NCBI GenBank assembly: GCA_032718475.1
Contig: JAUCBJ010004675.1
Coordinates: 1-64,000 of the forward strand
Source of the DNA: Nemertoderma westbladi
Taxonomy: Eukaryota; Animalia; Xenacoelomorpha
Length of the DNA: 64,000 bases
Reading direction: 5' to 3'
Part shown: positions 619-57,975 of the stretch, piece after piece
How the letters are laid out: each line of letters opens with the position of its first letter
Numbering within the stretch: position 1 is the stretch's first letter
Made by a program: the position numbers and the translations under genes
Notes under the pieces: generated by a model
Database searches by the model: none
Told to the model about the DNA's origin: nothing
The model's input: only the letters and a program-made list of their open reading frames with translations

Positions 619-895
619 AGTAGTATAGAAAAGGACTAAATGAGAACACCAACTACCCCAGGTTAAAATTGACTCCTTATAATGCACGTGGAGCTACTTC
701 AATATATATTAAGCAAATAATAGGTTCTCACACGCTGATCAAAGGTCATTGTAGATAAAAAAAAAACTGTGAATGTATGAGTAGGCTTTGGTTTGGAAAC
801 TAAGGTATTGAAACCTCCGAGGTATTGAAAGTTAATTAAAGTAATTTTTATAATGACTTGCATTCTATATAGTTTAATCTTGGGATCAAAGGTTA
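619..895 (+). repeat. Polinton left TIR
   Basis: Reverse complement of 11281-11661 (near-identical over ~648-876, diverged near the tip), plus an 11-bp match of 885-895 to 5014-5024. Confidence 0.85.
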
Positions 896-970
896 ATGTT
901 AGAAGTAAGATGTAATCTATAAATAATTGATTTATAAATAAATGGTTTAAAGAAATAAAATATATATAAA

Positions 971-3900
971 ATGGCAAGTTTATCAAATACACAAAATCAG
1001 TCAGGTAAACATTCAGTTGAATTGCACATGAGCAAGCAATTCAAAAACGTAACTTTTGAATATGAAATCATGGCATTTGAAAAACAATCTGTTGATACAT
1101 TCTTTGAATCAATAAGAGACAAAGTTTCGATTGAAATGAGACGAATGTTAACAAAATCATCAATCAAAATGCAAATTGTTATGGGAATAACATTTATACA
1201 TCCTATAAATGGAGACATTGAATTGTATTACAATAGACACGATCCAGAATTAATACTTTCAGAAAACAACATTGATCAGGCAATAGAGTCTAAAAAAACT
1301 AAAACAACTACATGGGTTCAAGAAATGGAAGGTGGAGGGTCAGGGTTGATATTTAAAGAAATCACTGAAGCAAAATTAAAATTATCTGTTTTTAAAAATA
1401 TGGGTGGGTCTAGTTTTATAAAACTACCTTTTAGATCAACCTATATTGTCAATGTGAAAAATGATGATGAAAAATGTTTCCTATGGAGCATATTAGCACA
1501 CATCCAACCCCAATCAAATAATAGATGTCGAGTTACTAAGTATAAACCATTTGAAAATATCCTAAATATGAAAGGTATAGATTACCCAGTCTCTTTAAAG
1601 TCAATTAACAAATTTGAAAAACAAAACAATTATGCTATTAATGTATTTTGTATTGAAGATAAGAAAGCTCTTCTTCCCCTTCGTATTAGTAATTTCAGAG
1701 ATAGAGAGCAGATAGACTTGTTGTTTCTCACCATCTGTAAGAAACAACATTATACTTTGATTACAAAATTTTCATCATTTTTAAACGGCTTCAATCTAAA
1801 AAACACATCGCTTACTAATTCCTTGTTTTACTGTCGGAATTGTCTGAGAGGTTTCTTTGAAACAGAAGGTCTACAAAAGCATGAAGAATTATGTTATGGG
1901 AATAAATCAGCAAAAATCATCATGCCTATTAAAAACAAAAATAATATTCTAAAATTTCAAAAGTATTGGTATAAGTCAAAGCTACCTTTTGTTATTGTTG
2001 CAGACTTTGAAAGCATAAATGTACCAATGAACCAGAATGATGTATTATGCAAACAAATTCCTTATTCATTTGGACTTTACATAAAGTCAGAATACCAAGA
2101 GATTCTAAAGGATATATACATCACATATAGTGGACCAGATGTTGTTGAGAAATTCTTAGACAAGATTCTCTATTATAATAATTTTATAGGTTCAATATTT
2201 ACACAGTATACAGAATATCCTAAACCCTATAATTTAACAGTAGAAGAAAAGTCCAACTATCAAAATGAACTCAGATGTCATTTTTGTAAACAATCGTTTG
2301 ATGTTAAGATTTGCCAGGGGGAAAAATGTAATTGCGATAAAGTTGTTGACCACTGCCACTATTCTGGAAAGTATCGAGGTGCAGCACATAGATGTTGTAA
2401 TTTACATGAAGGTTGGGTTACAAAGTTCATTCCTGTCTATTTTCACAATTTATCAGGTTACGACTCTCATCTGTTTGTAAAAGAATTGGCACTTAAACAA
2501 ACAGAGAAGCAGCATTTAAAAATTCTCCCTAAAACAAATGAAGAATATATTTCTTTCCAATTTGATAATTTACGATTTTTAGATACCTACAGATTCTTCC
2601 GGAAATCATTAGCAGATGTTGTGGAATCGATGCAGGAATCAGATTTAAACATTACAAGAAGACATTTTTCAGATGATAAACAATTCTCTTTGATGAAAAA
2701 GAAAGGTATATATCCATATGAATATTTTACATCATTGGAACAATTTAAAGAGACAAAACTACCTCCTAAAGAAAAATTTTATTCAAAGTTACGAAATAAT
2801 GATATTTCAAAAAAGGAATATTTACATGCTGAATATGTTTGGAATACTTTCAATTGCAAAACCTTGCAAGAATACCATGACCTATACCTCAAAGCAGATG
2901 TGTTGCTATTAGCTGATTGCTTTGAAAAGTTTAGAAATTTCTTTCTTGAACATCATGAAATTGACCCTTGTCACTGTTACTCAACTCCAGGTTTGACTTG
3001 GCAATGTGGTTTAAAATATACTGGAATACAATTGGAATTGCTTACTGATTATGATATGTTACTAATGTTTGAAAAAGGGATCAGAGGTGGTTTTTCTGGA
3101 GTTTTAGGTGAGAGAATTATAAAAGCAAACAATAAGTATTTGTCACACTTTGATAAAAATAACCCTTCAAATTTTCTACTCTATTTGGATGCAAATAATC
3201 TATATGGGTGGGCGATGAGTCAACAGCTTCCAATAAGGGATTTCAAGTGGGAAGATCCAAATACTTTTAACTATGACAAACCATACATTATGGAATGTGA
3301 CCTTGACTATTCAGATACAAATCTCAAATTCAAAACTAGAAACCTCCCCTTAGCTCCAGAAAAAAGACTGATTGAAAACTGTGAACTGAGTGATTATCAG
3401 ACAAACCTCCTTGAGGTTAATGATGAAAAATTAGGAAATATACCAAAGCTAATTCTTGATGTTAATAATAAATACAAATATGTTATTCATCACAGACTAT
3501 TAGAATTTTATAAATCCATGGGACTGAGAGTTTCAAAAATTCATAGAGTAATCTCATTCATTGAAGAAGCTTGGTTGAAACCATATATTGATTTTAACAC
3601 ACACCAAAGGACATTGGCTAAGGCTAATTTTGAAATAGATTTTGATGAATAATAGCTTTTATGGGAAAACTGTAGAAAATATCCGTGATAGGGTAAATGT
3701 AGAAATTGTAAATTTAGAGAAAAGAGGGTTGAAAATTCAAAGTCATCCATTATATAAAGGTATAACTATATTAAATATGGATCTTGCCATTTATCAAAAA
3801 CATATCAAGGAAGTTTGTTTTGATAAGCCCCTATATCTTGGAATGTGTATTTTGGATTTGTCAAAGCTATTAATGTATGAATACTATTACAATGTTATTA

Positions 3901-4508
3901 ATAAAAGATGGCCAATGAATCAAGTACTATATCAAGATACTGATGCTCTCTTTCTAAATATATATACTGATGATGTTTATAAAGATATGGAAGATATCAA
4001 ATATACATTGGATACTTCAGGATATCCACTAGATCATTCACTTTATAGTACTGAATATAAAAAGGTGGTCGGTAAATTCAAAGATGAGCTAAGTGGTAAA
4101 ATAATAGCAGATGCATGCTTTATAAGGTCAAAACAGTATTCATTCAGAACAGAAGAAATGACAGTGGAAGTAGTTAGAAAGCTTCAGAATATTGTGAAAG
4201 ATTTTGTTTGTGATAATTATAATTCCATTCACTCAAGCAAACCTAAAATCAATACAACTAAACGATTGAAGGGGATTACTAAATCAGTCGTTGAGAAACA
4301 AATAATCTATGAGGATTATGAAAATATATTGAAAGGTAAAAATAATAATATTTTTCGAGAGGTAACATTGTTGGGAAGTAAAAATCATGAAATATATCTA
4401 CAATCTTTAAAAAAGAAGGCATTCAGTGCTTTTGATGATAAAAGATTTATTGATTTTAATGGTATCACTACATATCCACATGGACTCGAAAAATCATATT
4501 TCATATAA
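971..4508 (+). pseudogene. polB: Protein-primed family B DNA polymerase (pPolB) with endonuclease VII-like Zn domain, frameshifted
   Basis: ExoI ADFES, DHCHYSGKYRGAAH (endo VII-like), ExoII HNLSGYD, motif A YLDANNLYG, motif C YQDTD. A small deletion at ~3640 removes the expected FKL before MNNSFYGK and splits the gene into ORFs 971-3652 and 3642-4508. Confidence 0.93.
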
Positions 4509-4513
4509 TTAAA

Positions 4514-4939
4514 ATGAATATAGCTGACTTCTTAAACAGATTTGGGAAAAACTCAACAACCTACTTTCAGTTAATCAAGTATGCAAAAGAACTAAAAATA
4601 CCAAATTTCTATATATGTATGCGAGATGAAATTAATGATTTACCAACAAGCCAAACACCCTTAAATGTAATCACAAATATTCATACCTTAGATGAAAGGG
4701 GTATTCATTGGAGTGCTTTTCATTTAAATCATAACAATGTGTGTTACTATTTTGATTCCTATGGTCTACCTCCATTAATAGAAATTATTGATATATTCCC
4801 AAGCAAAACAGAAAAGATTCGAAATACTTTTAGTGTTCAAAATTTTAATGAATCACATTGTGGTCAGTTGTCATTATATGTTTTGTATAAACTAAACCTT
4901 GAGGGTGATTTCATAGATTTAATTCTAAATTTAACGTGA
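4514..4939 (+). CDS. Adenain-like cysteine protease (Polinton PRO)
   Basis: GIHW, YFDSYG and QNFNESHCG give an intact H-D-Q-C catalytic set. Starts 5 nt after the polB stop. Confidence 0.9.
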   Translation: MNIADFLNRFGKNSTTYFQLIKYAKELKIPNFYICMRDEINDLPTSQTPLNVITNIHTLDERGIHWSAFHLNHNNVCYYFDSYGLPPLIEIIDIFPSKTEKIRNTFSVQNFNESHCGQLSLYVLYKLNLEGDFIDLILNLT

Positions 4940-5348
4940 GATATATCAATCATTTCTCATCATACCTATTTTTTTTTTAAATATTTACCAGTCGTGAGAG
5001 ATGTTATCTAAAGTAACCTTTGATTTATTATATTTACCAGACTGACAAAAAATGTCAAACTACAGTAAAATTTCAACTACTTTTTTACACCGATTTATCA
5101 CAAATTATTATAATTTTCATCAAATTTTTCGCTTAAAAATGGATGGATTCCATTTTCCTGAAAGTTGTTCACATGTTCTGACTCTACTGTATATATGAGC
5201 ACAATATGGTTGTAAGTTCATACATATATAATGTAGTAGAGTTGCACCAATCCAAATGTTCTGTCCAATATATTTATTGTCTTGCTGTAACTAAGATTAG
5301 GTAAAAAAATTGATTTAGTTAAGAAATCAAAACTAATAGAAAACTTGT

Positions 5349-7901
5349 ATGGCTACTACTATATGTGAAAACATCAATAAACCAACTAGTATGGATACTA
5401 CCCAGTTCGTGACATTTGAACAGATGGGATTGAGAGCACCGAAGTCAGCATGCATGCATCTACTGTTAGAGAATGCCTATGAGTCTAATCTTTTGACTGA
5501 TATATCAAAAGTAGATTACCTAGCAGGCAATGGAGGTAATATGTTGCTTCAAGATGTGCCTGAATTGGAAATGTTTGTTGACGATCTTTATGTGTATGGG
5601 TATCTTCGAGAAGATCAAGTTGTGAGAACCAAAAGTTCTGTCATGTTGACAACTGGAAGGTTTGGGTCTGCCTCTTATATTGTGGAGAAGTTGAGGAGGG
5701 AGGCAACACAAACAATCGGAAAGAACTGTGATGACTTTATACACACAAAAATATTAGCCTCTGTACCGCTACATTCTCATGGAGTGATAATGCAAACAGT
5801 GCATAAAATTGAAGGAGAGATGAAGGATAAATATATAAAAAACTGGAAAAATCTGGAACAAAAAGAACCTATTGCTGTCTTTGTTGGAAAGTTGTATGTA
5901 TCTGTAATCAACCTAGATGATCTGCAGGAGCACTTGGCTGAATTTGGTAGAGTACTGCAGTCATATGGATGGGGAGTATACTCTGTTGACTACACAAAGG
6001 ACTTTGCTGGAACCCTCGATAGGAAGGCAATAGTCAAACATCTAGTGGAAACAAGAGGTTGGAGGTTGGAAGGGACATTTCAAGCAGCATTGGAGGCTGA
6101 TTAGCCCACAATTTTGGAAAACACTTCATCTGTGGGAAATCATGTGTTGACATACATCACATCTTGGGGCGGAAATACAATGAGAGTGAAGCTGTACAAC
6201 AAAATTGTTTGCCAGTTTGAAGCAGGAGAAGTATTGGAGAATTTTGGAGGGCATTTGGCAGACTACGCTGATTGCAGGAACCCTGTTCTTCGGAAATCCT
6301 TAGAACATCCATTGATCCAGCAATATGGATGTACAAGAGTTGAGATATCCTTGTACTCTATGAATTATATATCTAGAGATCTTGGTGTGGCAGTAATGAG
6401 AAGTGCATTAGAAAACATACAGCCATATCACGGATTATTTGTGCAGCAAAGTGGGAGGAATCACTGGCTAGCTCTAGCAAAAGAGGTGACAAGGTGTTGT
6501 GTCATTGCCTCTAAGACCACAGGAACAATCTATGTAGCTTGGTATGCTCACACAAGAACTGGGAAAGTTTCTGGAGTGAAAGTGCAGTGTAAGTTTGATA
6601 TACAAGAAAATAGACAAAGATGGGAGAAGGCTATATTGTGGAGTTGTTCAGAATTTGGATTTCGAGGTTGTCCTATATTTTGCTTCCAAATTAGAAATCA
6701 AAATGAAATTGAAAATGGCACGGAAATAGCTCCTCTGAAATGCTATTTCAAAGACCCCACTGCAAAAACAATAATTTGCTCATCGAAACTACCAACACAG
6801 TGTAGGTCAGTTCAAGCAAGAATTCCGTTGGAAGAAATGTTGCCACCAACAGATTTCATAGAGTGGACATGGAGGCAAGAGCCTTGCAAATCATTGGGAA
6901 CAGCAAAAATGCAATGGAAACTACTAGAGGTGCCTGAATACTTGCAAACACATCAGGTATCTTGGTTGTCAACGTGGAAAAGAGCGCAGAGGAACATTGA
7001 TATTCTAGATTATTTAGAATGTGAAAAATGGAGACAAGATGCACTGCAAAGAAGTGCAAGAAATCGAGAAGAAGTAGCTTTGATACACAAAAGGTTGCTG
7101 GAGTTCAAGAAAAGAAAACGACATGAAAATGAACAAAAGGAATATGTTTTGCATCTATTGAAGCATACTCCCATACAAAAAATTTGTGAGTTGGATGGTA
7201 AGAAACCATTAAAAGTAACAGTGCTTGGATTTCGACAAGCAACTGGACCATACCAAAGATACGAAATTTTGCTTTCGATTAGTTGTGAAATTTCCAAGAT
7301 ATATTCTAACCGAGGCTTGGAGTGTGTTTTAGATGAATTGAGAGATGCTTTTCACAGAGCACAAGAACCAAAAACAAAAGACATTTATTTTTTGGTTGAT
7401 GGAGTGCTGGAAATTGAAATTCAAGCTCCCAAAGAGTTCAATAATGAGCAGCAGCAGATAATTATTTGGTATCCAATTAAATTATTGAGAAGCCCAATTG
7501 AAGGCGAACAACAAAATATACAAGATAGATTGAAGAAAGTCGAAAATGAATATGAGAAGGCCAAGTCCCTGTGTTTGGTTGAATATCCTGCAAAAGAAAA
7601 GAGGAGTGTGAGAAAAGTGCTTCAATTGGAAGAAGGTGAATATCAATGTATAGCATATTGGAACCAAAACTATAGGGGAAAATTGCGTCACATATTATAC
7701 TTGCAGAATAAAGCTGGTGAATCTGCGAGACCAGTATATGGCTATTTCTTGCAGAGAGAGGTTTTGCAGATGCAGTGTGATTTGTCCACAGTATTATCTC
7801 CATTGCTAGTGAAAGTTGGAAGAACAAAGACAACACCACAGAAGAACAAGGATAGAATCATAACTTTAGCCCACACTCTGCTTAGCACAACAACCATGTA
7901 G
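5349..7901 (+). pseudogene. ~850-codon protein with Rep_trans/CRI-like initiator motifs, one in-frame TAG
   Basis: ORFs 5349-6104 and 6114-7901 are in the same frame, split only by TAG 6102-6104. Ordered motifs SVDYTKD, GNHVLTY, RVKLYNK, TRVEISL. The family assignment is inferred from motif order only. Confidence 0.55.
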
Positions 7902-8679
7902 GAGTAGCACAACATTGATAATAATTGTATACTAAACTTATGTACATGACTGAAACTGAGGAGTCCATTTTGCCTATTCAACAAAAGTTGTGCATACTGC
8001 ATACATATGCAACAGACACTGTCTGATGAACAAAGCAATATAGTCCGATTAAAGAAATGCATGCAGTCTGATGCAAGAGATATTGTCTCATACAATAAAT
8101 TCGGACACTTTTAGAGGATTTCATGCAGCATCCATTTGTCCTGGATTTTAACCAATTTTGACTAACAAAAATTGTATTTTGCAAAATTAGGCTAAATCTT
8201 TTGCCATAACACAACATCTTAGCAGGTTAAATATTTGGGCAACTATGCATTTACATAGATGCATACTTACCCGCACTGCAGTCAAGTATACTTACCCACA
8301 CTTTTTCCTGTAAGTTGTCAAAATGAAGTCTAAATGCATACTTACCTGCAATTTAGCAGCCCCGGAGCTCATGAACTCATCAACTATCGGTAACTAAATA
8401 ATGACAGTAATTTCGTGGTATACCTGATAATGTGATTGTCCAGTGCAAGCATGATATGGTGTCAATGGTGATAACAACATGAAGGAACTCGGGCCTAAGG
8501 TTCCCCCTTTGTATTTATACATACTTGATAGTCATTTCCCTCTGGCCCTTTTTGAATAAATTTGGATTTGTAAATAATTTGTTCCAAAAGTCAAATGTGG
8601 AAAATGCACCAATGTATGGGAGTATTACTGTATCTCACAACACTTCTCAATGTTTCCCTAAAGTTTCCCAAGGTGTCTC

Positions 8680-9113
8680 AATGTTGCACAAATGACCTTT
8701 TCGGCGTTGTTTTTGGTGTCATATTCTGTGATATCCGATCCTGAAGCCCAAATGTCCTTTTCCGAGTCGTTTTGGGCTTCAGGGCCTCGGAAGCCGAGAT
8801 CCTGAAGCCCAAATGTCCTTTTCCGAGTCGTTTTGGGCTTCACACTCTGTGATATCTGAGATCCTGAACCCCCTGAAGCCCAAATGTCCTTTTCCGAGTC
8901 GTTATGGGCTTCACACTCTGTGATATCTGAGATCCTGAAGTCCAAATGTCCATTTCCAGGTCGTTTTGGGCTTCAGGGTCTCGGAAGCTGAGATCCTGAA
9001 GCCCAAATGTCCTTTTCCGAGTCGTTTTGGGCTTCACACTCTGTGATATCTGAGATCCTGAACCCCCTGAAGCCCAAATGTCCATTTCTATTCGTTTTGG
9101 GCTTCACACTCTG
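8680..9113. repeat. Minisatellite of 61/62/71-bp hairpin-containing units
   Basis: TGAAGCCCAAA-N18-TTTGGGCTTCA units start at 8742, 8803, 8874, 8936, 8997 and 9068, plus a degenerate unit upstream. Confidence 0.9.
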
Positions 9114-9738
9114 TAGGTAATTTGTTGGTTTGCGCACAAACTAATCCAATTTTCGTTGTTTGTTGTTGTTTGAGTTGTTGTTTTATTTTAGAACGAAGAC
9201 AATTCGTTCTGAATGCGATGAATTGCAGTTTATTTTTAGCTAGGCCTACTAAAATACTAACATCATCGCCATTCGGCGGCATCAGCCAAAACTGGCCAAC
9301 ATTTTGGAGGTGATTCACTTCAGGTTTACAATCCCTAACTGCATCGAGGTCTCAAGAATGGGGTGTGGGGTGGGCCCATGGCGATTGCCATGGGTGGGTC
9401 CAATGGCATAATGTCTCGAAGGGCAAGGAGAACCAAAGTATACAAGGTAACAGCAATTTACAAACCAAACTAAGGTAATGCATGTTGCAAACCTACTCTA
9501 AATGCAGCATCTCCATGCCTTTCTGCAAAGACACCAAACTTGCATCAGGTGGACCACTTTTGATGGAAGACAAATCACTATAACAATAATGCAATTAAGA
9601 AGTGTGTTCTTTGCAGAAATGTGTGAAGCCAGGTCACATAACATCATATTTGATAAGAGATTTTATCTAATTTTGATAAAAGAAATTCACAATAATGTTG
9701 GCATAGTAGGTACTCATACTGTACCAAGACCTGAGACA

Positions 9739-10719
9739 TCAGTGTGTTTCTTCCATAAATCCAAACAGTTCTTTGAGGACCCGCACCACTTTGGGCATCA
9801 CAACAGAAGGGTGAATCCTTTTTGGATGGTGATTACGATTCACAGGAAAAAACTCAGTGATGCCTGATACATGGGATATTTCTCCCATGAAGCCACACAG
9901 CTTTGCAGCCTTATAGATGCCGCTAAATTCCCACTCTCCGATAAACTCTCCACGTGCTTTTCCTGTTTCATAGTCCTCTAACGTTATACGGTGTCCCTTA
10001 CTGTATATCGGAGCTTGCACCAGGTAACCATTTTCGTCCGAAAAGGCACAAACTATTTCCGAAGGAAATCCACATTCAGCAACATGCGTTTTATTTTCCA
10101 CTTGATCTATCATCGCCACTCCTTGGTTCGTTCCTCCAACTGTAATTGTCGCAGGTGGCAATCCCCGGGCGCAAGCTGTACCTGTTTTCAGCAGCAGTTG
10201 CGCTTGTGGTGCCACTTCCAAGATGGAGAGTGTGGCCGCGTATGAACACAATGGTCCTGTTGATTTTGGACATAACATAATTTTTGGAACTGCGCTCATG
10301 GGCAAAAATCCAACCATGGCAATACGGGTGGCATTAGTGGGGTGCAGAAGGTCCTGAATATTTGTTTCATGCTCTAAAAGCTTATTTAAGTAACGAAACT
10401 CCTTTGTATAGTGCCCTGTGATAATAATAACATTCGCCTTTTTTACCAGTTCTAATTTTGTTATAAATCGAAGCCCTTTGAACACTTTTATAGGACTCCT
10501 GTAACTACCTCCGCGAAGTGTTGTTTCCGGTTTTTCAGTGAACTTCCAACCCAATTCTAATCCAATGGTGCGAACACTTTGCACGATGCTTAGTCGTGTT
10601 GATGTTGTTGCATTCTGGACCTCGAATCTGTCCAGAATTTATGTATTTGTTATTTCTTTTGATTCGTCGGGTCTTATGAATCTCTTCAAAAAGACATTAA
10701 CTGTTGATGATGACTCCAT
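9739..10719 (-). pseudogene. Nucleoside phosphorylase/MTA-nucleosidase fold (PNP_UDP_1-like) protein
   Basis: VIIITGHYTKE, STGPLCSYAAT...LLLKTGTACA, GEWEFSGIYKAA (EME-like) and VSGITE (GISD-like) occur in canonical order. In-frame ATG at 10719, with one TAA at 10641-10639 upstream of the listed 281-aa ORF. Confidence 0.65.
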
Positions 10720-10790
10720 TTACATATATGTGCAGTCGCAATTGCCAGAGGAATCTCAGTACGCAGATGACCTGGACTTTATTAGTACAG

Positions 10791-10933
10791 ATGATGCCAT
10801 GCATTATATATATGATGCCATGCATTATATATATGATGCCATGCATTATATATTTGATGCCATGCATTATATATATGATGCCATGCATTATATATATGAT
10901 GCCATGCATTATATATATGATGCCATGCATTAT
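10791..10933. repeat. 21-bp tandem repeat (ATGATGCCATGCATTATATAT), ~7 copies
   Basis: Directly visible; it accounts for the DAMHYIY-repeat ORFs. Confidence 0.95.
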
Positions 10934-11280
10934 AATTTATCAAGTTGCCTACAGTACAATGCCATTAGCTAGTAAAATGCTGGTATGTTAAAATGTTACA
11001 TGATATAAATACAATGAACTAGTTGAACTTGGTTTCTGATTTCTAGAAAACGTTTTTAATGTGATGGAAACAATAATAGCTTCAGTTGGTAATCCAAAGC
11101 AGCAGACCCTAATCTTAAGTGTCATAATAACCCTAACATTAGTTGTTTTTTGAGAATTTTGCGAAATTTGCTTAGTGCATCGGCCAAAGCCAAACCGAAG
11201 GCCAAATCCCGAGAACTTGACTAATTGTCAAAGAGTAGTTGAATTTTTACTGTAGTTTGAAATTTTTTGTCAGTCTGGTA

Positions 11281-11661
11281 AACTATATAGAATGCAAGTC
11301 ATTATAAAAAAAAATTACTTTAATTAACTTTCAATACCTCGGAGGTTTCAATACCTTAGTTTCCAAACCAAAGCCTACTCATACATTCTCATTATTGTTT
11401 CTGATATCATTTTACTACACATTCCTGAGTCCGACTGTGGTCGGACTCAGAAATGCAATTCAGATTTAACCTTTGTAATCAGAATTGGATAAGATCTGCA
11501 AATCTCATTTTTTTTTTTTTTTTATTTACAATGACCTTTGATCAGCGTGTGAGAACCTATTATTTGCTTAATATATATTGAAGTAGCTCCACGTGCATTA
11601 TAAGGAGTAAATTGTAACCTGGGGTAGTTGGTGGCCGCATTGATCCCTTTTTTATACTACT
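11281..11661 (-). repeat. Polinton right TIR
   Basis: Reverse complement of 619-876, with an extra ~120 bp (about 11389-11507) absent from the left arm. Confidence 0.85.
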
Positions 11662-12298
11662 GTGGGCCTTGATTGGTTAATGGGTAATAAGGGGTTGTAG
11701 CGCAGTGGAGATACCTACCTAATATAGCTGAACAGGAGTGTATAGGATAAACGGCTGTGAATGGGGGCAGCCACTAATGGTCGAATGAGTATATTGGAGA
11801 TGAGATAGATATTGGTTTGCAACAATAAGCTGGGAGAATGGGCGGTAATGTAATGATAATATATTTTTTATTGTTTGAGAGAGACCCGCCACTACAGTCC
11901 CCCTTAAAAATTTTCAAATTTTTACACGATATCTGGGCTTCCTCAAAACATCTTAAAAATTTCAAATAATCGAAGGAACATCTTGTCCCACTCAAATAAT
12001 ATTAATCTATGGCCTTTATATTTTACCTCGGTGGACGAACTGGACATACAAAACAACGATTACACACAGGACATACATTTAAAAGTATGGAGTTGCCATA
12101 CGAGTGAAACAGACGTACAGAAGACAACACATGTAACACATAGAGGACAAACATTTAAAAGTATGGATATACCATACAAAGGAGATAAGAAGCTCCTTGG
12201 TATCTAAAGGGTCATTGAAGGTCAAAGATTAACATTATTAATACAATACTTAAGGAAGGTAATATGTTCAGTAATGTATTTGTCGAAGTTAAGATACG

Positions 12299-13170: not shown

Positions 13171-13188
13171 AAAATTTGAGCTTACAAT

Positions 13189-14016
13189 ATGCAGCAATAT
13201 AAATCGCAAAATAATAATTATAACTATATATTAACATGTATTGATGCCTTCAGCCGGCTTGCTTTTGCTTATGGTATGAAAACAAAAACAGGTATTGAAA
13301 TTATTAGTATATTGCAAAAAATATTCCAAAAGGGTAAACCAAACAGAATCGCCACGGATCAAGGGTCTGAGTTTCTAAATAAATCTGTAAGGAAATATTT
13401 AGATACGTTAGGTATACAGTATTACGTAATGTACTCTGTGAATAAGGCGGCTATTGTTGAGAGATTCAATCGCACATTAAAAACAAAGATGTTCAAAATT
13501 TTCACGCAACGGGGAAATAATGTTTGGATAAAAATTTTACCAAAGCTCATTTATGCTTATAATAGGTCAGTTCATAGGACTATACAAATGATGCCCATTG
13601 AAGTTAATAAATTTAATGAAACTGAATTAATGAATAGATTATATGGGAAATATAGACAGATAAATCACAAGAAAATAAAATTTAAAGTTGGGGATACAGT
13701 ACGATTATCTATCGCTCGTACTGCTTTTGCTAAAGGCTATCGAGAACAATGGACACGAGAATTATTTATTATTCATCGGGTTAGATTGGATAGAGTACCA
13801 GTGGTAATGTTCGATATTAAGGACAGCGCTGGAGCTATAATAAATGGCTCATTTTATTCTCACGAACTCCAAAAGGTCCACCCGAATAGTAATATTTATC
13901 TTCCGATTGACAAAAATATTGACAAACTTAAAGAACGTGTACGCAATGGGAAGAAAGAATATTTAGTCCGATTCATTGGATCCAAGAAACAGTCGTGGGT
14001 ACAGCATATTCAATAA
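13189..14016 (+). pseudogene. Polinton rve integrase with chromo-like C-terminus, N-terminally truncated
   Basis: YILTCIDAFSR, TDQGSEF, VERFNRTLK, FKVGDTVR, EYLVRFIG...SWV. The first catalytic Asp (WQADL motif) is missing at the junction with the BEL remnant. Confidence 0.9.
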
Positions 14017-14261
14017 GCTTAGGTTTATACTGTATATTAATTCATTTTGGTCGCATATGACCATAATTAATCAATAATATTAACTCGAATGATATTACTA
14101 TATCTATAGTTGATCCGCTTTAAATAAAGTCAGTAAAATATTGATCCCTCGCATATATTGTAGATGCGACAATGAACGTGGTCACAGATGTCTATAATTT
14201 AACATTATACTGTATGTACAAAGAAGTCAAGTAGAGAGAGCGAGCTTAAATAATAATAATA

Positions 14262-15134
14262 ATGGCCACAGATACATATATCACTCTACTTTCAGATAGC
14301 TCATTAAACACTTATCCCAATAATAATCCTAGCGACTTTACTGTTGATTTAGCCGAAGAATTATATATTGGTCCAAACGCTAAAATTGGGCTTGCCGAGC
14401 TACAATACCAAGCAACATACAGTAATATTACACTGCAAACTCAAATCTCGCTGTCAATCGTGGTAGATGCAAAAGATGCCAAATTATATAGTTTATTTCC
14501 TGGTATGCATAGCTCTATTCAAGTGATTATTGATGATATAAATAAACTGTTTAATTCTGAAGCGAAATATAGAGATTTCGAATTCATTTTTAATACAAAT
14601 AATTCTAGAATTAAATTTAAATTTCCTAAAAAGTTGAAAAAAATACAATTAAGTCTACGCGGTGATTTAATACAAATTCTAGGCTTAAAAGCGTTATTGG
14701 ATCAGAATCATCCAGGTATTCCGAATTGGGATATATACAGTACCACTAAAGTAGATGAATTCAGCAATATAGAACAACCGATATTAATTTTAAATTATAG
14801 CGGACCAAAAATTTCAGAAATTGGGATTTTAGATTTTCCTGATCCCACGAATATAACACGCAATAAAGATACAATCTTCATATATACTGATATTATTAAG
14901 ACCTCATTTGTTGGTGATGCTTTAGCTCCGCTCTTAAGAACCTGTCCATTAACACAATTAAATCGAAAATATATTAATCACGAATACGAGAGCATTTGCT
15001 ACTACCCATTGTTGAATAAAAAACTAAAAACAATATTAATTACTTTACGTGACGGGCAAGGCGAATTAATTAATTTTAGCGGAGGTAGCACTATTATAAC
15101 ACTTAAGTTAATACGTGGTGGCAGTGATGGATGA
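14262..15134 (+). CDS. Polinton minor capsid (penton) protein 1
   Basis: N-terminal YITLLSDSS..YPNN.PSDF.V.L and C-terminal FIYTDII...VGD...PLLR...YYPL...I.ITLRD..G..INF.GG signatures. Confidence 0.8.
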   Translation: MATDTYITLLSDSSLNTYPNNNPSDFTVDLAEELYIGPNAKIGLAELQYQATYSNITLQTQISLSIVVDAKDAKLYSLFPGMHSSIQVIIDDINKLFNSEAKYRDFEFIFNTNNSRIKFKFPKKLKKIQLSLRGDLIQILGLKALLDQNHPGIPNWDIYSTTKVDEFSNIEQPILILNYSGPKISEIGILDFPDPTNITRNKDTIFIYTDIIKTSFVGDALAPLLRTCPLTQLNRKYINHEYESICYYPLLNKKLKTILITLRDGQGELINFSGGSTIITLKLIRGGSDG

Positions 15135-15965
15135 GTTCTATGTCAGACTACAGAGTAATTCCTGTCCAATTGATTTTCCCCGCAATAGTGCTAGTAATTA
15201 TCAAATTAATTTCCATGGCGCCTTACCTATAAACCCAAACGAAAACTGGGTGGTAGGTATAAAAAGTATATTTTACTTAGCTACGTTGCCGTCAATGTAT
15301 AACAATGTAGAGAATGTTATTTTATTAAAAAAGGGGAAAAAAAATTTTGTGGATACACTTCCATCCGGTTTGTTCTACAGTATCAATGACATTATAGATT
15401 ATTTTAACACGGGGGCGTTGAAAGATAAATTACAAATAGTTGAAAATACTCAGCAAAATAGGTTGCAATTTATTTTAGGGAAAGCAGTGCGAGAGTTATT
15501 TATAGGTCAACAATTAGCCTATTATTTTGGATTTACTGAAAATAATCTCGGTGCGAATTTAAATCCAAATTTTAAAATTATTTTGAAGATGAAAAATAAC
15601 ATAAAGGGTTATTTAATAAAGATTATCGGAAATGGAGAAAAAGCTTACCAGATAGTATTTTTATGCCCTCAACCACCCAATTCTATTCCAGAACCTAAGT
15701 CGAACATGTATGTGACTACTAATATAATTGAAAATCAATATATTAATGACTTTGGTTTAGCTTTACTTCGTCGTGTCGCGATACCTGATGACGTGAAATA
15801 TGGTAGTGTAATAAATAAAGAATTTGCAATTCACTGGATACAATTCATTATATCCCTGTAAAAAAATCATATAAGATAACATACATTCATATTGAAATAA
15901 CAGACGAAGAAGGAAAATATTTAAATTTTGAATACGGGACAACATCTATTACATTACACTTAAAT
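15127..15965 (+). pseudogene. Polinton minor capsid (penton) paralog 2, frameshifted
   Basis: MDEFYVRLQSNS...FPRNSASNY...WVVGI. After a frameshift at ~15830 (CAATTCA duplication) it continues HYIPV...IEITDEEGKYLNFEYG..SITLHFK. Confidence 0.72.
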
Positions 15966-16026
15966 TACATTACATTATTACATTAATATTGATATTTACA
16001 TTGATATTACATTACACTAAATTAAA

Positions 16027-16587
16027 ATGGATTCTGATTTATTTCAAAGATACAGTAAACCTCAATATGGTGGGGCAGACTCTAATCTTGCTGTTTTTAA
16101 AGGCGGTAGAAGTACGAGAGGTTCGACGCAAGTTCCTGTTTTTCGAGGTGGTTCATATATTGACCCTTACGGTCAACAAATTGGTGCATTTGGTCCAAAC
16201 TTAAAACAACGTCGTTTTCAACGTTATCCTAGAGGTATGCGGGCAAATCAACACGGAGAAGGTATATTTACAGACGCTTTATCCACATTGAAAAAATTTG
16301 GTAAGCCATTAGCCAAAAAAGTGTTACAAAAAGCTTTACCATTTACCACAAAATTTATGAGACAACACGTAATACCAAAAGGTAAGCGGGTCTTACATCA
16401 GCAGGCTAATACGGTTATTAATAAAGCATTAAATAAAATGAAACCGTCAACAAGGTCAGTTGTAGAAAAAGTTTATAGAGATTTAAAGCGACCCGCTAGA
16501 CCAATGTCTATGAACATACATCATCGACGTAGTAAAAAAAGAAATATAAAAGGCAAACTGAAACACTGCGAAAAAAGTATTTTTTAA
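16027..16587 (+). CDS. Basic pX/pVII-like core protein with GG-type protease sites
   Basis: QYGG, FKGG, FRGG and QHGEGIF followed by an amphipathic helix; K/R-rich; lies between penton and MCP. Confidence 0.65.
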   Translation: MDSDLFQRYSKPQYGGADSNLAVFKGGRSTRGSTQVPVFRGGSYIDPYGQQIGAFGPNLKQRRFQRYPRGMRANQHGEGIFTDALSTLKKFGKPLAKKVLQKALPFTTKFMRQHVIPKGKRVLHQQANTVINKALNKMKPSTRSVVEKVYRDLKRPARPMSMNIHHRRSKKRNIKGKLKHCEKSIF

Positions 16588-16589
16588 TA

Positions 16590-16680
16590 ATGTCAATTAT
16601 TAAGGAATTAGATTTATTTTCTACACAGCCAATACAGACTGAATTTAAAGCAAAGCATTATGAAACAATTTATCCTCCAC
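16590..16680 (+). pseudogene. N-terminal stub of a Polinton major capsid protein
   Basis: ATG 16590 gives MSIIKELDLFSTQPIQTEFKAKHYETIYP, matching the ELDLF..P.QT.......HP start of Maverick MCPs. Similarity ends abruptly. Confidence 0.65.
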
Positions 16681-18344
16681 TTGAAGGTTATGACTTAGAG
16701 TTATTTTATCCATGGTGCAGGCCGCATTGACAGCGCAATGGTAGTTAATCCCGGGAATCCTGTTGTGCGGTCCATAGTGGTTGCAAAATTTAGACATATC
16801 ATTTAAGTATAGACGGTGTACTGCTCCCTTTAAATAGGTGGTTTCATCTGGTATTTGGTAATCCACTACTCTACAGAAGTAGGCCAACTCAAACAGCAAG
16901 TCGAAAACGTCGAATTTAGACAAGTTTTCTATACGCTTATTGATGGTTAAAGATTGTATTTTCTGACTAGCCAGAGTCGTACCGCCTGTTCTCACTAGGC
17001 GATAGGAGACGATATTTTCAATATTTCTAGGGCGGTAATTCCCAGTAATAATCTCTTCTTTCCCTTTGGTATTGTATAAAGTAATCTTAAATCCAGAGCC
17101 GACATGCAAATGAGGGACGCTAATGTCCAATTCAGGCACTATATATAGTAATGTGTTCGTTCCCGTGGGATAATCGAGAAGACACACCAAAAAGTGTTTT
17201 GATAGTTGATAATTCTACTTAATCTCCTAGTTCACTACTTACAAAACTTCGTAAAGATTTCCCTTGAATCGTATCATTTGTTATTAATTTAAACAATTTG
17301 GATTTGCGTTCGTGTTCTACGGCCTCAAACGCTATATGATAGTTGCGCTTTAACTTATTGATGGCCATTGGCTTTACTGAGATACAGTCTTGTCTAACAT
17401 CGAAGTTAATATCGAAGGATCTAGACGCAAAAAGATAACTGACATCAAACATGCCATCTACCATTTTCTTGGAGGTCAGGATACTTTTGGATCTAGCGGT
17501 GATGAGCTGCCGGACTTTCTCTGCAGCCACAGTGCTGTCGAGGAAACCGAATTGGGAAAGGATATCCTTTGCCTGTTCAAAGGCGACGACCCCATCCTTG
17601 GTGGTTATTGGCGGAGCAGTTTCCGGCCAAGCTATCTGCCACAGGAGAGCGTCTGTGTCCGCAATAGGAACATCCAGGTTAACTTCTCTGATTATCCGGG
17701 CCTTACAGGGGCTTTGGGTGTGTTTGGTCACAGTATATTTGAAATTTAAGACATTTTTCACGGTTTTGAGCTCGAAGTGTAACACCTTCTTGACGACTTA
17801 TTTATCCGCAGGTTGGCCATGGAAGGCCCACCAGTCCGCAACAGCAAATGGTGCTCTTTGTGTATCCTCACTGTAGGGGTTTCCCCATGACACCTTCTCT
17901 TCCGGCGTTGCGTTTATGGGGCATTTGAATTCGATACCATTCCATGTGGAAGGGATATGATCCAAATTGGCAACCTTGGCCGATATAGGCCTTTTTCGGG
18001 ACATTTTGGACATCAACTCGAGACCTGGTTGGGTAGAAGTCTTCACTGAACCAACAGAGTTTATTAGTCTGATCTCGTCGAGCTTGATGTTATATAGGGA
18101 GGGATCCTCCCTATACGCACTCAGTACGTGTTGCAATCCCTTTAACCGGGAAGAGTTAACAGTTGTCATTATTAAACCTCTTGCTATTGCTATTGTTGGA
18201 TACAAACCGAGCTTTAGCAACTGTCGGAGACAGGCCAATATTATGACTGTGACATAAACATTCCCTCCCTGTTGATAAATCTAAGGAGATAGTCTGTGTG
18301 GGAAGAACCCACAACTCAAATGTCTTGAATGTGGTCGCGTTCAC
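16645..18344 (-). pseudogene. Disrupted unknown gene(s), probably Polinton accessory
   Basis: Collinear ORFs of 62, 146, 188 and 181 aa. The 146- and 188-aa ORFs are in frame across one TAA (17798-17800). No recognisable motif. Confidence 0.45.
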
Positions 18345-48481: not shown

Positions 48482-51400
48482 TTATTTACTAGTATTAGGT
48501 GGAGATTTGTAGTCTCCAGACTCGTTACGAGTCTCTTCAAGGAGTACGAGACGTTGAGTCGGTCTGTCTACTGTACGACCGTCAATTGTCCGTACCGTCA
48601 CAGTTCTTGTCACTCCATCCATAGATGGATGTGTGGCTAAAATTACACCTGTTATCCAGAAGCGTCTTTTTAGATTCACTTCTGCTAACAGCACGTGATC
48701 TCCCGGCTTTAATGCGCGGGTTTTATTGTACCAGTTTGTTCTGGCAGAAATAGAGGGCAAATAATGGTTTTGCCATATTTCCCAGAATTTGTTAGCCAGT
48801 AGTTGCGTGATTTTCCACGCTTTTCTACCGTAGCTGTCGCTTTCTATCGGAATAGAAATCGGCGTCAAAGTGGTCGGTGCCTGCATAAGCAGGTGTGCCG
48901 GTGTCAAAGCGAACTGAGATTGTTTGTCATCGGGTACTAATACTATTGGTCTAGTATTTAGTATTGCCTCGATTTCAACAAACAATGTTGTCAGTTGGTC
49001 GTCTATCAGTATGTGGTTTACTGGAATGACTTTTGCCATGGCTGTCTTGATAGATCTAATCAATCTCTCCCAGACTCCGCCTCTCCAAGGACTATCTGGA
49101 GGATTGAACTTCCAAACAATCTTGTGAGGTTGTAGTTCGTTCGAGATTTGATCGTGATCTAATTTCTTAAAGGCTCTAGCAATCTCATTCCGAGCACCAA
49201 CAAAGTTTGTCCCTTTGTCTGAGTACAAGCATTTTACTAGTCCGCGTCTAGCGATAAATCGCCGCAGTGCTAGTATAAACGCGTTGGTGGAAAGATCCAT
49301 CACACGTTCAATGTGAACTGCCCTACTGGACATACATGTGAAAATCAGTCCCCAGCGTTTTACTAGTATACGTCCACGTTTCGTATGTATGGGACCAAAG
49401 CAATCAATACCAGTCTCTGTAAAAGGTGGTCTGAATGCTTGAAGTCGTGCTTGTGGTAGCTCACTCATTTCTTGGGTACCTATTCTAGAATGTACCTTTT
49501 TACAAATAATACACGTACGTGTCACTGAACTTAACGCTTTACTGGGTCTAATCAATACAAATCTTGTACGTAAGTAGGAAAGACAGTGGTGTCTTCCAGC
49601 GTGTTTCAGATGTAAATGTGCGTCCAGTATCATTGCACGTTGTAGTTCGTGGTGTTGCGGTATCATTATTGGGTACCTAAAGTTTGTGTTAAAGTCAATG
49701 TTTTGAAGCCGAGATTTATGACAAATTAAGCCATTATAAATAATCGGACTCCAACTCAGTATTGATGACGACTTGATTGGTTGACCTTGATTTATAGATG
49801 TGAATTCGCGCGCGAAATATCGCAGTTGGTAATGGCGAATTAATTTAATCTCACACCTGTCAATCTCAGCCAATGTAAGTCGACGTGTAAAGTCACGTTT
49901 GCCTTTAACGTATTGTACAAAACGTACAATCCACGCTAATTTTCGGCAAGCGTTTGTCCAAGAATCTGTTAAGTTTACAATACGGTCGACATAAGTATTT
50001 GTGACGTCATCAGGTAAATCAATGGAGATCTTGGAAGGTTTTGAATTACTAGAAGGGCCCACGGGTCCGCCGGTAAGTATTCCCTTGTTGACTGTTGATC
50101 CGTCCGGGTCTACAAGTAATTTGTCCTTCTTCGTCTTCTTACCTTGATTGTCAGTACTTTGTAAGTCGATCGTTAATGGTGGTTTGAACTCTATGGGGTC
50201 AGCAGGTTTCGGTAAACTTATTTTTCTGCCGACATTAATCCCAGGTTTCACCATAGGTTGCAAGTTTGGTATGTCTCTTGAGCGCAAAGTAACACCTGTA
50301 TTTACATTAGCGTAGGTACTACCCACATCTGTAATACATGAGGTTTCACCGTGCTTATGGTTGCTCAAGTGTGTCGAAATTGGTAGTTTGTCAATACAAG
50401 GCCGCTCCAATAGGGAAACTGCGGCTTTACTGTTAGTCGATACATTACTAATGTCCGGTAGAACATTTTGTGATGTTTCTGACAAAATGTCTAGTCGACT
50501 GTCTAGTAATGTGTCTGGTCTGTTGTTTGTCAATAGAAGGCCGCTCCAATAGAGAAACTGCGGCTTTACTGTTTGTCAGTGTGTTACTAGCGTCTGGTGG
50601 AATGTCTGGTTGACCGTCTAGTAACGTGTCTGGTTGACCGTCTAGTAACGTGTCTGGTTGACCGTCTGGCGATATGTCTGGTGTAGAAAGGCTCGCAAGT
50701 CTTCCTCTCTTGACCTTTGAAGTTATATCTTTCCATTTCGCCTTCGGTTTCTTCTTGAGTTTCGCCGCCGTCGTCTTTTTCTTTGCCTTCCCCTTTTTTG
50801 GTTTCTTGATTTCGGCGTCCTTAGGGATGGTGTTGGAATTGTTGTCGTATAACGGCGGCCAATGTAGTGTTGAACCTTGTAAGAATTGTGGTCCGTGTTG
50901 CCAAAATTCTTTGTTCTCCGGTTTACAGAATTCCTCAGGCATCATTCCTCGCGACGCAATATCAGCTGGGTTTTGTGGTCCGGGACAATGTCGCCAATCC
51001 TCTTTTATCGAACGGTCTAGAATTTCCGCGCGACGGTTAGCTACGAATGTCTTGAATTCGAGTGTGTCGTTGTTTATGTAAAATAAAACCAACGTCGCGT
51101 CAGTCCAATAAAATATCTGTAAACTCGACTGTAGTTCTGTCTGTATGAGGTTCACGATGGTGGTTGACAGGGTTGCGGCTTGTAGCTCAGCTCGTGGTGT
51201 CGTCATATACTTAGTAGGCATGGTCTTAGCCTTAGAAGGAATGAGCGAAACATCGAACTCGTCTGAGTCTACTTGTCTGCGCAAGTACGCTGCCACACCA
51301 AAACCGTTGTCACTGGCGTCAGAAAAACAGTGTAATTCCAAGTTGTCAGGAAATGTACTTTGTAATGGAAAGTAAACCCTGGGTATGAAATAATCCTCTA

Positions 51401-54400
51401 GCGAAGATAATTCCGCCTCCCAGGTCTTCCATAAGTCCACTTGGTCTGATGAGATCGGCTCGTCCCATGTTAGTCCATCCTTCCATATACTGCGCATATA
51501 AATGCGGGCTTGCAGTATCACTGGACTGATGAATCCTAACGGATCGAACAATCGGCTCAACTTTGACAAGCATGATCTCTTTGTCAGTATGTTCTCTTGA
51601 CTGTCCAGTCTCACTTTCACTCGAAAGTTGTCTGTGTTTGGGTCCCAAAAGAGCCCCAACACCTTAGTCGTCGGTAGTGGTTCGAACTCTAGGTCTATGT
51701 CACCACCTCCACGCTCAGTCGTCCCGAATGAGTCTACTAATTCGGCACTGTTTGAGGCGAATTTGGTGAGGTTAAAACCTCCGCCCGCTAAGCAGTCCCG
51801 TAATTGATGTGCTACTGTTGTAGCACGTTCTACTGTGTCGCAACTTTGTAATCCGTCGTCTACATAAAAGTCACGTTCTACGATTTTAATTATCTCTGGG
51901 TCATATAGATGTTTCTGATCTCTAGCGGCCTGCTTTAGGGCGTACATCGTACAATTTGGGCTGTCTCTGGCACCGAAAACGCGAACTTGCATTTGGTAAG
52001 TCGCTGGTGGTAGACTTAAGTCTCCTTCCGGGTACCAGAGGAACCGCAAACTGTCTCTGTCTCGCTCTAACGCTCTCACTTGGTGAAACATCGCTTCAAC
52101 GTCGCAAGTAAAGGCTACTTGACGCTGACGGAAGCGCATAATCACCCCCATTAGATAATTATTCATGTTTGGTCCATCCATCAACTCACTATTGAGGGAC
52201 ATTCCCTCAAACAGAGCCGCACAGTCGTTGACTACGCGTACTTTATCTGGTTTGTCGGAGTGTCTCACATAGTGATGTGGCAAGTAATATGTTTGGTCAG
52301 TCACTATCTCCGGGTTAGTCATTCGGATAGCGTATCCCTTTGTCAAATACGTCTCCATCTGAGTGTTGTACTGCAGATGGGCCTTCTCGTCCTTTAATAG
52401 ACGTTGCTGTATTGAGTGTAGACGTCTTAAAGCCAGTGGGTAGTTGTTTATAAGTTTAGGACTTTGGCTACGCCATAACATCCCTACCTCATAATGTCCG
52501 TCTTTCGTCTGGCGGATAGTATCTTCCATGATCTTCAGAGATTGTTTCTCCTGTTCCGACATACAAGGTTCGTAGCTACCAGGTTCAGCTGTATCTTGTT
52601 CTAACCACCTGATAGTCTTCTCCGTTAATTCTTTGTCTAGTGCAGCTTGTTCCACTTGATGAATTTTCAACGCGTCATCATCGATATCGAAGGGCACTGT
52701 TGAGGTTATTTGGGTAGGTAGACTCGCAAGCCTATCATCTGTCTTCGATGGAATCTCTAGCTGACTCGTCTTCTCCCCAAGTTCTAAACTCCGCTGGTGG
52801 ATTAGCTGCTCCTTGTGACTTATCATACTAGTTACACGTCTGTCATGTTTTGTCGACTGTAGTGTAGTATGGTTCACGTCATGTGAAAAGGAAAGAATTG
52901 AATTTGTAGTTAATAAACTACATGTACTCTGTACATCGTCTTCCTCGTCACTTACGTCTAGTGTGCGCACAGGCGCTCGAGTATACCACCCTATCGGCGT
53001 TCTGCAGGCGTATGCGTTTCCCGCTACAACTGCCGATGGTCTGGTTTCCCACACCTGATGTAGGTTGAATTGGTCCGTCCCGATCAGCATGGCTACCGAT
53101 CTATAATTGACAGGACATTCGGGTACACCAAGGTGTCTGAAATACTTACGGTCCTCTAGAGATTGTTCCGGCACTGGACCTAGTAGGTTACTAAAGTCCT
53201 TCGTGGCCGCAAAGGTTAGATCTCTAAAGGGCAACAAAGACCTCTCCCTCTCGCTGTGCTGCGATTTTGGAAGAAGAGAGTCTAAGTCCAACGTAACTCG
53301 TGTCACTGGTATTGCACGCTGTCCGTGCATACTACTTACTGTATAACTGACGTGCTTACCTTGTCTGAGATCCGTCACGACGTCAGCTATCTTTTCATCC
53401 ACGTAACTGTGAGATGAGGCTGAATCTAGAATCGCGTAGATCCTCTTACTCCCCTTTGTGCCAGTGATCTTAATCGGGATTACACTGAATCCCTTCAGTT
53501 GGTCAGTGGTCAGAAGCGCGATCGACGGTTGTTCGTCTCCATTGGAATATTCGTCGTCGTCTTCTGATTCTTCGTCCGACGATCCGGATTGTTCTGAGAA
53601 GCAATCCTCAATATGGGTCACGAAGGTTGGAGTCGTTTTCGATTCTCGTTTTCTATAGGCCGCATCACATCTTGCTGCTGCTTCCGGGTGTTCCCTGGCG
53701 AAGCGTTTTGTCGGCGTGTGGCTGTCTGTGTGGAGCAGACCGTCGTGGTTGCGTCCACAGGATGGACAAGTGTCAGTATTTGGGCAATCTTTACGGACGT
53801 GTCCGTGTCGCGTACACCGCCAACAAGAGTCCAATGGCCGTATTTGCAGCCGTCGTTCTTCCGAGTTCAACTCGCGAAATTGTCGACAACCTCGTAACTT
53901 GTGACCGATATACCGCTTGCCTAGATGCTCGCAGTATTGGCAGCCACTGAAGTTGGTACCAAGTTGCTGTCTCGTCTGTTTGGTCCCAATGGGCGCAGAT
54001 ACCCTACCTCCGTCCGAGAATTGTCGTGATTCCGTCGGTGTGGTGTAAGTGGCCGTCTTAGTGGATGTTGTCTGGGGTTTTTGTCGGTTGGAGGATGGCA
54101 ATGTGATTCCTTCTGCCACGATGTGCTGGTCGGTGTAGTTAGATCGAGTTTCTACTACGGCCTCCCTGGATATTAAAAGGTACACATCTTCTAATTTTAA
54201 GAATCCTCCCCGCTCTTCTCGCTGGTATTCGACCTTTCTCCATTCCCGACGAAGTCGATGGTGGAGTCGTCCTATGATCTTTAATAGGACTGTAGGGGTA
54301 TTCCCGTAATCAAGTTGTCCAATTGATCTTAAGGTAGTGATAGCGTTCTTGATCTCGTCAGCTAGTTTTAGTAAGTCGACGGGTTTAGTGATAGCCCCTC

Positions 54401-57164: not shown

Positions 57165-57975
57165 TTCGGTAGTTGTAAGTCAAGTAAAGTGAGTGTCAAA
57201 GTATCGAGTTTACCGTATTTGTACAAAACGGTACTAATTACAGTCTTATAAAATTAGCCTACCGGCCGATTTTATAGCAGATGGATAAAATTAGCCTAAA
57301 CGGCCAATTTTACAGCAAATAAATGTCACGGACTAAGTATATAATAAAATTAGCCTAGCGGCCAATTTTATAACAAATAAATCGGATAACGATATGCGTT
57401 ATCAAAAGGTAAATTAAATACAATAATACGGACTAATTCAGCAATGAACAAAGAAATCATACGGAATGCATAAATACTTGAGACAGTGGAACCCACAATA
57501 ATTTTAACTAATACGGTAATGCCTAACTTATTTATGCAACTTTTCAAACTCACCCACTCCAATAATTCTCCAGAAAAACAGATTCCCAGATACAAACCGG
57601 ACGTGAACCTTTCCGTTTTTAACGTTGCGGACGAAACGCGATTTTCCCAACCAAAGTTGTTGAGTTATCTATCTCCCAAACTTGCTAAACACGGTCTTGC
57701 TCCCGTTACAGCCTAGAAATGAGTTCTGAATCCTGAAAAAACAAAAGAGTTAGGTTTTACTTTACGAAAATTTTGTACCGGTACAATATGGTATTTAAAC
57801 CCTTTTAAACACCGGTATTCAATTCCAAAATATTTTTACACGCGGTTCAAATCAAATTTTTTATTTCAAAAAATTAGCACTTAGCTAATCAAATATAAAT
57901 TTTTTACCTCAAAATACAAAATTTTCAAATAACTTTAGTCCTACCGAACCGTAGTTCAGTAAAACATATTCCTAC

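Follow-up and report, generated by a model that had tools for sequence, protein, structure and literature searches.

The 64,000-nucleotide stretch of Nemertoderma westbladi DNA analysed here (contig JAUCBJ010004675.1, positions 1 to 64,000; "the window") carries on its forward strand, at 5349..7901, a gene of 850 codons that we call Rep-like. The gene is a decayed copy. We consider it probable that its product was the one large protein of a still unnamed eukaryotic mobile element with multiple copies, and that this protein was a non-HUH tyrosine nickase of the Rep_trans type, which would move the element, starting from a fixed end, into TA sites. An earlier note on this DNA had proposed a non-HUH rolling-circle initiator in an animal-like genome. 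Beyond that, we find that this is the gene of a mobile element that has several copies and a fixed end and that in this case lies inside a Polinton.

The Rep-like gene and its family

The frame runs from the ATG at 5349 to a stop at 7899-7901 and is interrupted by a single TAG at 6102-6104 (codon 252, translated as X), which splits the predicted nickase domain as the earlier note had cautioned. All peptides quoted there, from DDLYVYG to TRVEISLY, lie in this one frame, and the codons of D214 (5988), Y283 (6195) and E332 (6342) are placed correctly; the proposed interval, 5349-6360, was too short. The window copy deviates at 19 of the 142 columns that are conserved to at least 90%. This corresponds to 13%, compared with a median of 2% and a maximum of 16% for the homologues; 12 of the 19 columns are retained in the closest relative. 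A reassignment of the stop codon was ruled out, as nearby frames end normally at TAG and the homologues are open at that column. The gene is set in a repeat region of animal type, in agreement with the genome type originally proposed. An RNA look-up gave no entry.

A homologue search that scored 7998 candidates gave 149 proteins at E ≤ 0.001, a sign that the frame is no product of chance; most are some 850 residues long. A profile of the core, run against 1.84 billion proteins, collected 728 clusters (50% identity), of which 150 reached E ≤ 1e-30. Most members are nameless. The named ones include proteins of Elysia crispata, Porites lobata, Tetrahymena utriculariae and Sinanodonta woodiana and are all eukaryotic, save one partial protein from a symbiont metagenome-assembled genome (MAG). 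A scan of GTDB genomes yielded a single locus, on a 1516-bp MAG contig. No relatives were found in viral contigs, no sequence similarity was found in phage records, and the plasmid search returned merely three rows with E-values of 2-8. The protein matched nothing in Pfam, PHROGs, NCBIfam or the PDB sequences, and the ESM Atlas gave unnamed clusters only, with a low recognition score. Because the named members are eukaryotic, GTDB holds one locus and neither viral contigs nor phage records hold any, the family is eukaryotic as far as sequence comparison has tested it. A prokaryotic origin of the window copy was ruled out by the single GTDB locus and the eukaryotic named members. The family is a large unnamed group of eukaryotic mobile elements in animals and ciliates, with several copies per cluster. 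The ratio of nonsynonymous to synonymous substitution rates (dN/dS) on the core was 0.09-0.25 in four of seven pairs; the other three pairs were saturated.

Conserved residues and predicted fold

The predicted nickase domain with a TBP/Rep_trans fold spans 5553..6446 (+), approximately residues 69-366. Its strands bear D78/D79, D214-x-T-x-D218, K281-x-Y283-N-K285 and R330-x-E332, each on a β-strand; the candidate metal residues D78, D214 and E332 are thus all found on predicted strands, and Y283 is carried by strand 276-284. Among the 120 homologues listed, D214, D218, K281, Y283 and N284 are present in 120 of 120, K285 and R330 in 119 of 120 and E332 in 119 of 119. We also compared 46 divergent cores, which remained after the 192 domain-spanning cores had been filtered to less than 65% identity. 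D78, T216, D218, K281, Y283, N284 and K285 are kept in all 46, and D214, R330 and E332 in 45. The tyrosine of the YNK motif, for which the earlier note had asked about conservation along with the aspartate and the glutamate, is therefore invariant in both sets.

Other parts of the proposed motif pattern fared less well. The arginine of RxD, noted as a serine, is indeed absent here, but this is not a defect of the copy: it is absent throughout the family, and its place is taken by S in 22, C in 10 and D in 6 of the 46 divergent homologues. Similarly, the tyrosine of the R.Y[ND]K motif is present, whereas the residue two positions before it is the invariant lysine K281 and not an arginine. The arginine that had been quoted is R279, four positions before Y283, which is conserved in 40 of 46 cores. 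The T/SxYxG pattern of Rep_trans motif II is not kept across the family, though G263 is found in 45 of 46. There is no conserved HUH motif in the family (an H-hydrophobic-H string occurs in 3 of 47 cores). A Walker A-like string was seen in 2 of the 154 members of at least 800 residues, with no dedicated search of longer proteins. The longest member, with 1532 residues, is joined to a polymerase-like fragment.

The predicted model contains a curved TBP-like sheet and matches the Rep_trans/TBP fold over the span of the motifs. Its structural matches include the inovirus protein A0A345MNV4 (E 0.029), cited as an inovirus Rep_trans protein (PMC13107129). Behind a long helix follows a C-terminal β-region (7209..7877, +) that is likely to consist of OB folds for single-stranded DNA. 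One of them is weakly indicated at residues 759-843, and we infer a second one in this region.

The 6242-bp unit and its host Polinton

The gene is part of a unit of 6242 bp (5037-11278) with inverted ends of about 55 bp and TTA before each of them. The left end (5034..5089, +) reads TTA followed by CCAGAC... and is located 312 bp ahead of the ATG; the right end (11226..11281, -) is 93% complementary to it over 57 nucleotides. The left end sequence gave two matches against 0.05 expected and is probably the fixed 5' end of the element. The unit further contains a tandem array of ~61-bp units (8680..9114) with two copies of a 43-nucleotide hairpin (8771-8813 and 8965-9007; fold z -6.1), which is a candidate origin or terminator, and an orphan frame of 299 codons on the reverse strand (9739..10638). 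No homologue of the orphan frame was found, including among proteins of 154-490 residues, and no DDE transposase frame was found within the unit.

The unit is hosted by a deleted Polinton/Maverick (619..11661, +) with the ends AGTAGT...ACTACT, terminal repeats at 619-876 and 11279-11661, and a 6-bp duplication, GTGGGC, at 613-618 and 11662-11667. We take inverted AG...CT ends and a 6-bp duplication to be the defining features of Polintons; 619-11661 has both. In runs X1 and X3, contigs connect 612 with 11662, representing the empty Polinton site. The host retains just a split polymerase and a protease. The former is a presumed protein-primed DNA polymerase at 959..4508 (+), divided between two frames near 3640; it contains an insert matched by endonuclease VII. 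It had no Pfam polymerase match, and we presume its identity from its motifs and the Polinton ends. The adenain-type protease (4514..4939, +) was matched by Peptidase_C5 with an E-value of 0.0086, too weak for the family cut-off. The right Polinton repeat also harbors a ~120-bp insert at 11401-11513, with a hairpin of 16-bp stem at 11420-11455.

To the left of the unit, the sequence resumes the Polinton repeat found on its right with a score of 26, a value reached by none of 390 local windows and by 9 of 2000 shuffles. The unit was therefore probably inserted into the inner part of the right Polinton repeat. Its joints are compatible with insertion at T/A without duplication or with a duplication of TA. 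Two other junctions of the unit's end in this species, at 901 and approximately 5276, both follow TTA; they rest on single rows of contig tables, namely one joint row and loose ends in two runs. The three contig runs represent at most two samples, one of which is possibly the window's own source. No circle junction was seen.

Ends and flanks in relatives

The relatives were studied at 42 metagenome loci (labelled L; proteins are labelled P). Nine closely related loci have a common 5' end about 230 bp upstream of the conserved start; five different flanks adjoin this end, and every joint shows TTA. Three of the five flanks map to a single Polinton polymerase gene (E 7e-19 against the window polymerase), all within ~620 bp (L006/L009/L011/L015, L010 and L022). 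A fourth partly matches the element's own downstream region. No inverted copy of the 5' end was found in the nine loci. At two of the joint sites, L011 has uninterrupted polymerase sequence, which reads AT/AAA there and fits insertion at a T/A step. Across the relatives the fixed end is located 230-450 bp upstream of the gene, a distance similar to that in the window.

In a separate set of eight proteins, one translated leader stands behind seven different upstream sequences, and three of these seven sequences are pieces of one polymerase-like gene. L029 is joined on its 3' side to a relative of this gene (E 1.8e-81), and in L025 an N-terminal polymerase piece is located directly upstream (E 4.5e-5). 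By its motifs and domain order, the polymerase-like gene of P0457/L029 is a putative Polinton polymerase (compare 10.1101/2024.03.18.585575); four comparisons, by BLAST, phmmer and hhalign, gave no tie between its frame and the window polymerase. The joints at L029 3881 and at residue 522 of P0458, in different records, are at most two codons apart, just past the exonuclease-like YDFE motif of this gene; P0459 breaks where P0458 does, with a different sequence beyond. A true polymerase-Rep fusion was ruled out: since one leader follows many different upstream sequences, the joins in L011 and P0458, which are in frame, represent read-through over insertion joints.

The fixed end was thus observed with five flanks in nine loci, with seven upstream sequences in eight proteins and at four joints in the window's species. 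The joints of L002/L003 break the TA rule. A Polinton-like neighbor is present in 8 of 43 loci; many of the loci do not extend as far as an end. Polinton DNA seems to be targeted often. Targeting of Polintons is suggested and not stated more firmly, because host-like flanks occur at other loci (an exon of a Na/Ca exchanger in L009; immunoglobulin and endonuclease frames in L034) and short assemblies favor flanks of high copy number, Polintons among them.

The ends differ in structure among loci. L004 and L032 have inverted repeats about 140 nucleotides long, and palindromes of 126-166 nucleotides are located upstream in L002/L003 and L035-L037, in the latter with AGTAGT/ACTACT ends. A Polinton-like start (AGTAGTATAG) is found in L011 at 5031-5040, behind the element's accessory frames. 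Downstream of the gene, L008-L013 and L015 have small coiled-coil frames (about 130 codons) that occur duplicated and shuffled among loci, with no Pfam match among the frames scanned. Another downstream frame is common to L004 and L016/L018/L019/L028, and behind the gene L002, L003, L023 and L024 contain a minisatellite of more than 1 kb based on CGCAGGCTCTGTT.

Proposed mechanism and alternative explanations

By analogy with RepD we infer the following rolling-circle mechanism. Y283 would cleave the phosphodiester at the element end and remain on the 5' phosphate, with the metal held by D78, D214 and E332; religation would be helped by K281 and K285. The strand would be displaced by the host or Polinton polymerase, held by the OB tail and then joined at a T/A step. 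The element encodes no helicase, and a helicase would therefore have to be borrowed. Of this picture, the conservation, the fixed end and its target are observed, and the fold is a prediction.

The invariant tyrosine and the fold match of the model argue for a non-HUH, Rep_trans-like initiator as the earlier note had proposed. This support is moderate, not strong, because several results weigh against it. Neither the window copy nor 34 homologues matched Rep_trans or Phage_CRI in Pfam, an hhalign comparison with 100 RepSTK1 homologues stayed inside the shuffle range (probability 0.8%, E 0.073), and TBP equals or beats RepSTK1 in Z for the model. A simple rolling-circle model does not explain the inverted ends of the window copy; they may be two facing copies of one end or the sign of a hairpin-ended replicon. 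The scores of TBP and the lack of a significant sequence link to Rep_trans would also suit a TBP-fold DNA-binding domain, or another nuclease domain, that forms no tyrosine-DNA intermediate, which we regard as the least probable of the alternatives. Only slightly less improbable is that the ~55-bp inverted ends, with TA at both sides, belong to a non-autonomous, TA-duplicating cut-and-paste element of the Tc1/mariner type that captured the gene, so that the Rep-like protein did not move the unit. The Polinton repeat that resumes across the unit is in line with such an element, and so are contigs several times deeper at the end sequence than in the unit interior. The unit, however, has no DDE transposase frame, and relatives have a single fixed end with no inverted partner in nine loci, at a distance from the gene similar to that of the window's left end.

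The element could also be a satellite replicon of Polintons, with hairpin or inverted ends, that uses Polinton enzymes and enters genomes mainly by recombination into Polinton DNA. Its nickase would then resolve hairpins or start replication and would not be a general transposase. Such a replicon is suggested by the nesting of the window unit, the three joints close together in one polymerase gene, the polymerase piece just 5' of the element in L025, the location inside the polymerase-like gene of three of the seven leader joints and of L029's 3' side, and the upstream palindromes. However, only the 8 of 43 loci have such a neighbor, many being too short to reach an end, L009 and L034 have host-like flanks, high-copy flanks are favored by short assemblies, no relative was found in viral contigs, and the identity of the P0457/L029-type polymerase is presumed from motifs. 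On balance we consider the satellite unlikely. We prefer the Rep_trans-type nickase with a fixed end. A wider version, in which tyrosine transposase elements of this type occur across eukaryotes from ciliates to molluscs and corals, preferentially parasitise Polintons (polymerase genes, terminal repeats) and ride in Polinton genomes, is tentative and rather doubtful.

Other features of the window

A second block of Polinton-like genes, with an rve integrase (E 7e-11), is located at 13180-16587 and presumably includes two similar frames resembling minor capsid proteins, as well as a core-like basic protein. The first Polinton was inserted in repeated DNA upstream of this block. Three neighboring frames of 160-192 codons (16645-18280, -) had no Pfam match and no PHROG below E 0.06. 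Retroelement frames extend across 40350-63921. We take those at 48482-57179 (-) for a BEL/Pao-like polyprotein, and those at 21551, 26061, 40350 and 61816 for LINE-like frames. Satellites with units of 19, 77 and 99 bp are also present.

Comparison with known systems

The element is likely to be a new kind of eukaryotic jumping DNA, because it combines a predicted plasmid-type nickase with multiple copies and a fixed end repeatedly joined to Polinton DNA; it may be a parasite of Polinton viruses. No description of such an element was found in the full-text literature. It is possible that it has already been named somewhere, since most subscription journals and Repbase reports, as well as supplements, lay outside the coverage of this search. 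If the wider version given above is true, the element would be a transposon-satellite of endogenous DNA viruses whose enzyme has so far come from prokaryotic plasmids, phages and conjugative elements only. With a large family built on the other rolling-circle fold, which is unrelated to HUH, eukaryotic genomes would gain a transposase chemistry new to them, and an unannotated repeat of several animal phyla and one ciliate would receive a name. The repeated joints in Polinton polymerase genes make the host-virus-parasite relation testable in existing long-read assemblies. Intact natural copies exist, and the nicking chemistry is therefore directly assayable.

In the available passages of Craig (2023, PMC10288648), the Rep-mobilised eukaryotic transposons described are HUH groups only. 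Like Replitrons and Helitrons, the family has one Rep-like gene, multiple copies and a short insertion target, and Replitrons also lack a helicase. Those elements use an HUH endonuclease with the tyrosine on a helix, whereas the family has no conserved HUH motif, a different predicted fold, and ends that include inverted repeats and long hairpins. The fused PIF1-type helicase of Helitrons was not encountered, within the scope of the Walker A comparison given above. The inovirus gpII/Phage_CRI proteins (PF05144) and the archaeal Rep-Arvir are likewise non-HUH initiators related to Rep_trans. Rep-Arvir is linked to Rep_trans by structure only, and TBP is among its top matches (PMC13107129). Unlike these proteins, the family has an OB-like tail in place of a winged helix, and no capsid genes.

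Also close in its predicted features is Rep_trans (PF02486), with RepD/RepC of pT181-family plasmids, RepSTK1 (4CIJ/4CWC) and the MOB_T relaxases. Common to both are the predicted curved TBP-like sheet, the motif order D...DxxxD...(R/K)xYxK...RxE, and the absence of an HUH motif and of a fused helicase. In the available passages of Wawrzyniak et al. (PMC5714925), the tyrosine is placed in the sheet for Rep_trans and in a helix for HUH proteins; Y283, on a predicted strand, agrees with the former. The RepD motifs given in the passages of Carr et al. (PMC4797284) are R140/D142/A144/D146, T176/Y178/G180, R189/Y191/K193 and R212/E214. Three of these four groups agree in spacing with the family, in which K281 takes the place of R189, and the first arginine and the TxYxG strand are absent. 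The family differs from Rep_trans in motifs that are spaced further apart, in its 850 residues, which include an extra domain as well as the long helix and the OB-like tail, and in being eukaryotic and chromosomal.

Polintons/Mavericks are the host of the window unit. The Rep-like gene is absent from their gene lists in the available literature passages; it has no fixed position in Polintons and is found at several sites as an interruption of their polymerase genes and repeats. For a small element bound to a DNA virus, transpovirons offer a precedent; the available passages of 10.1101/2024.03.18.585575 discuss transpoviron helicases.
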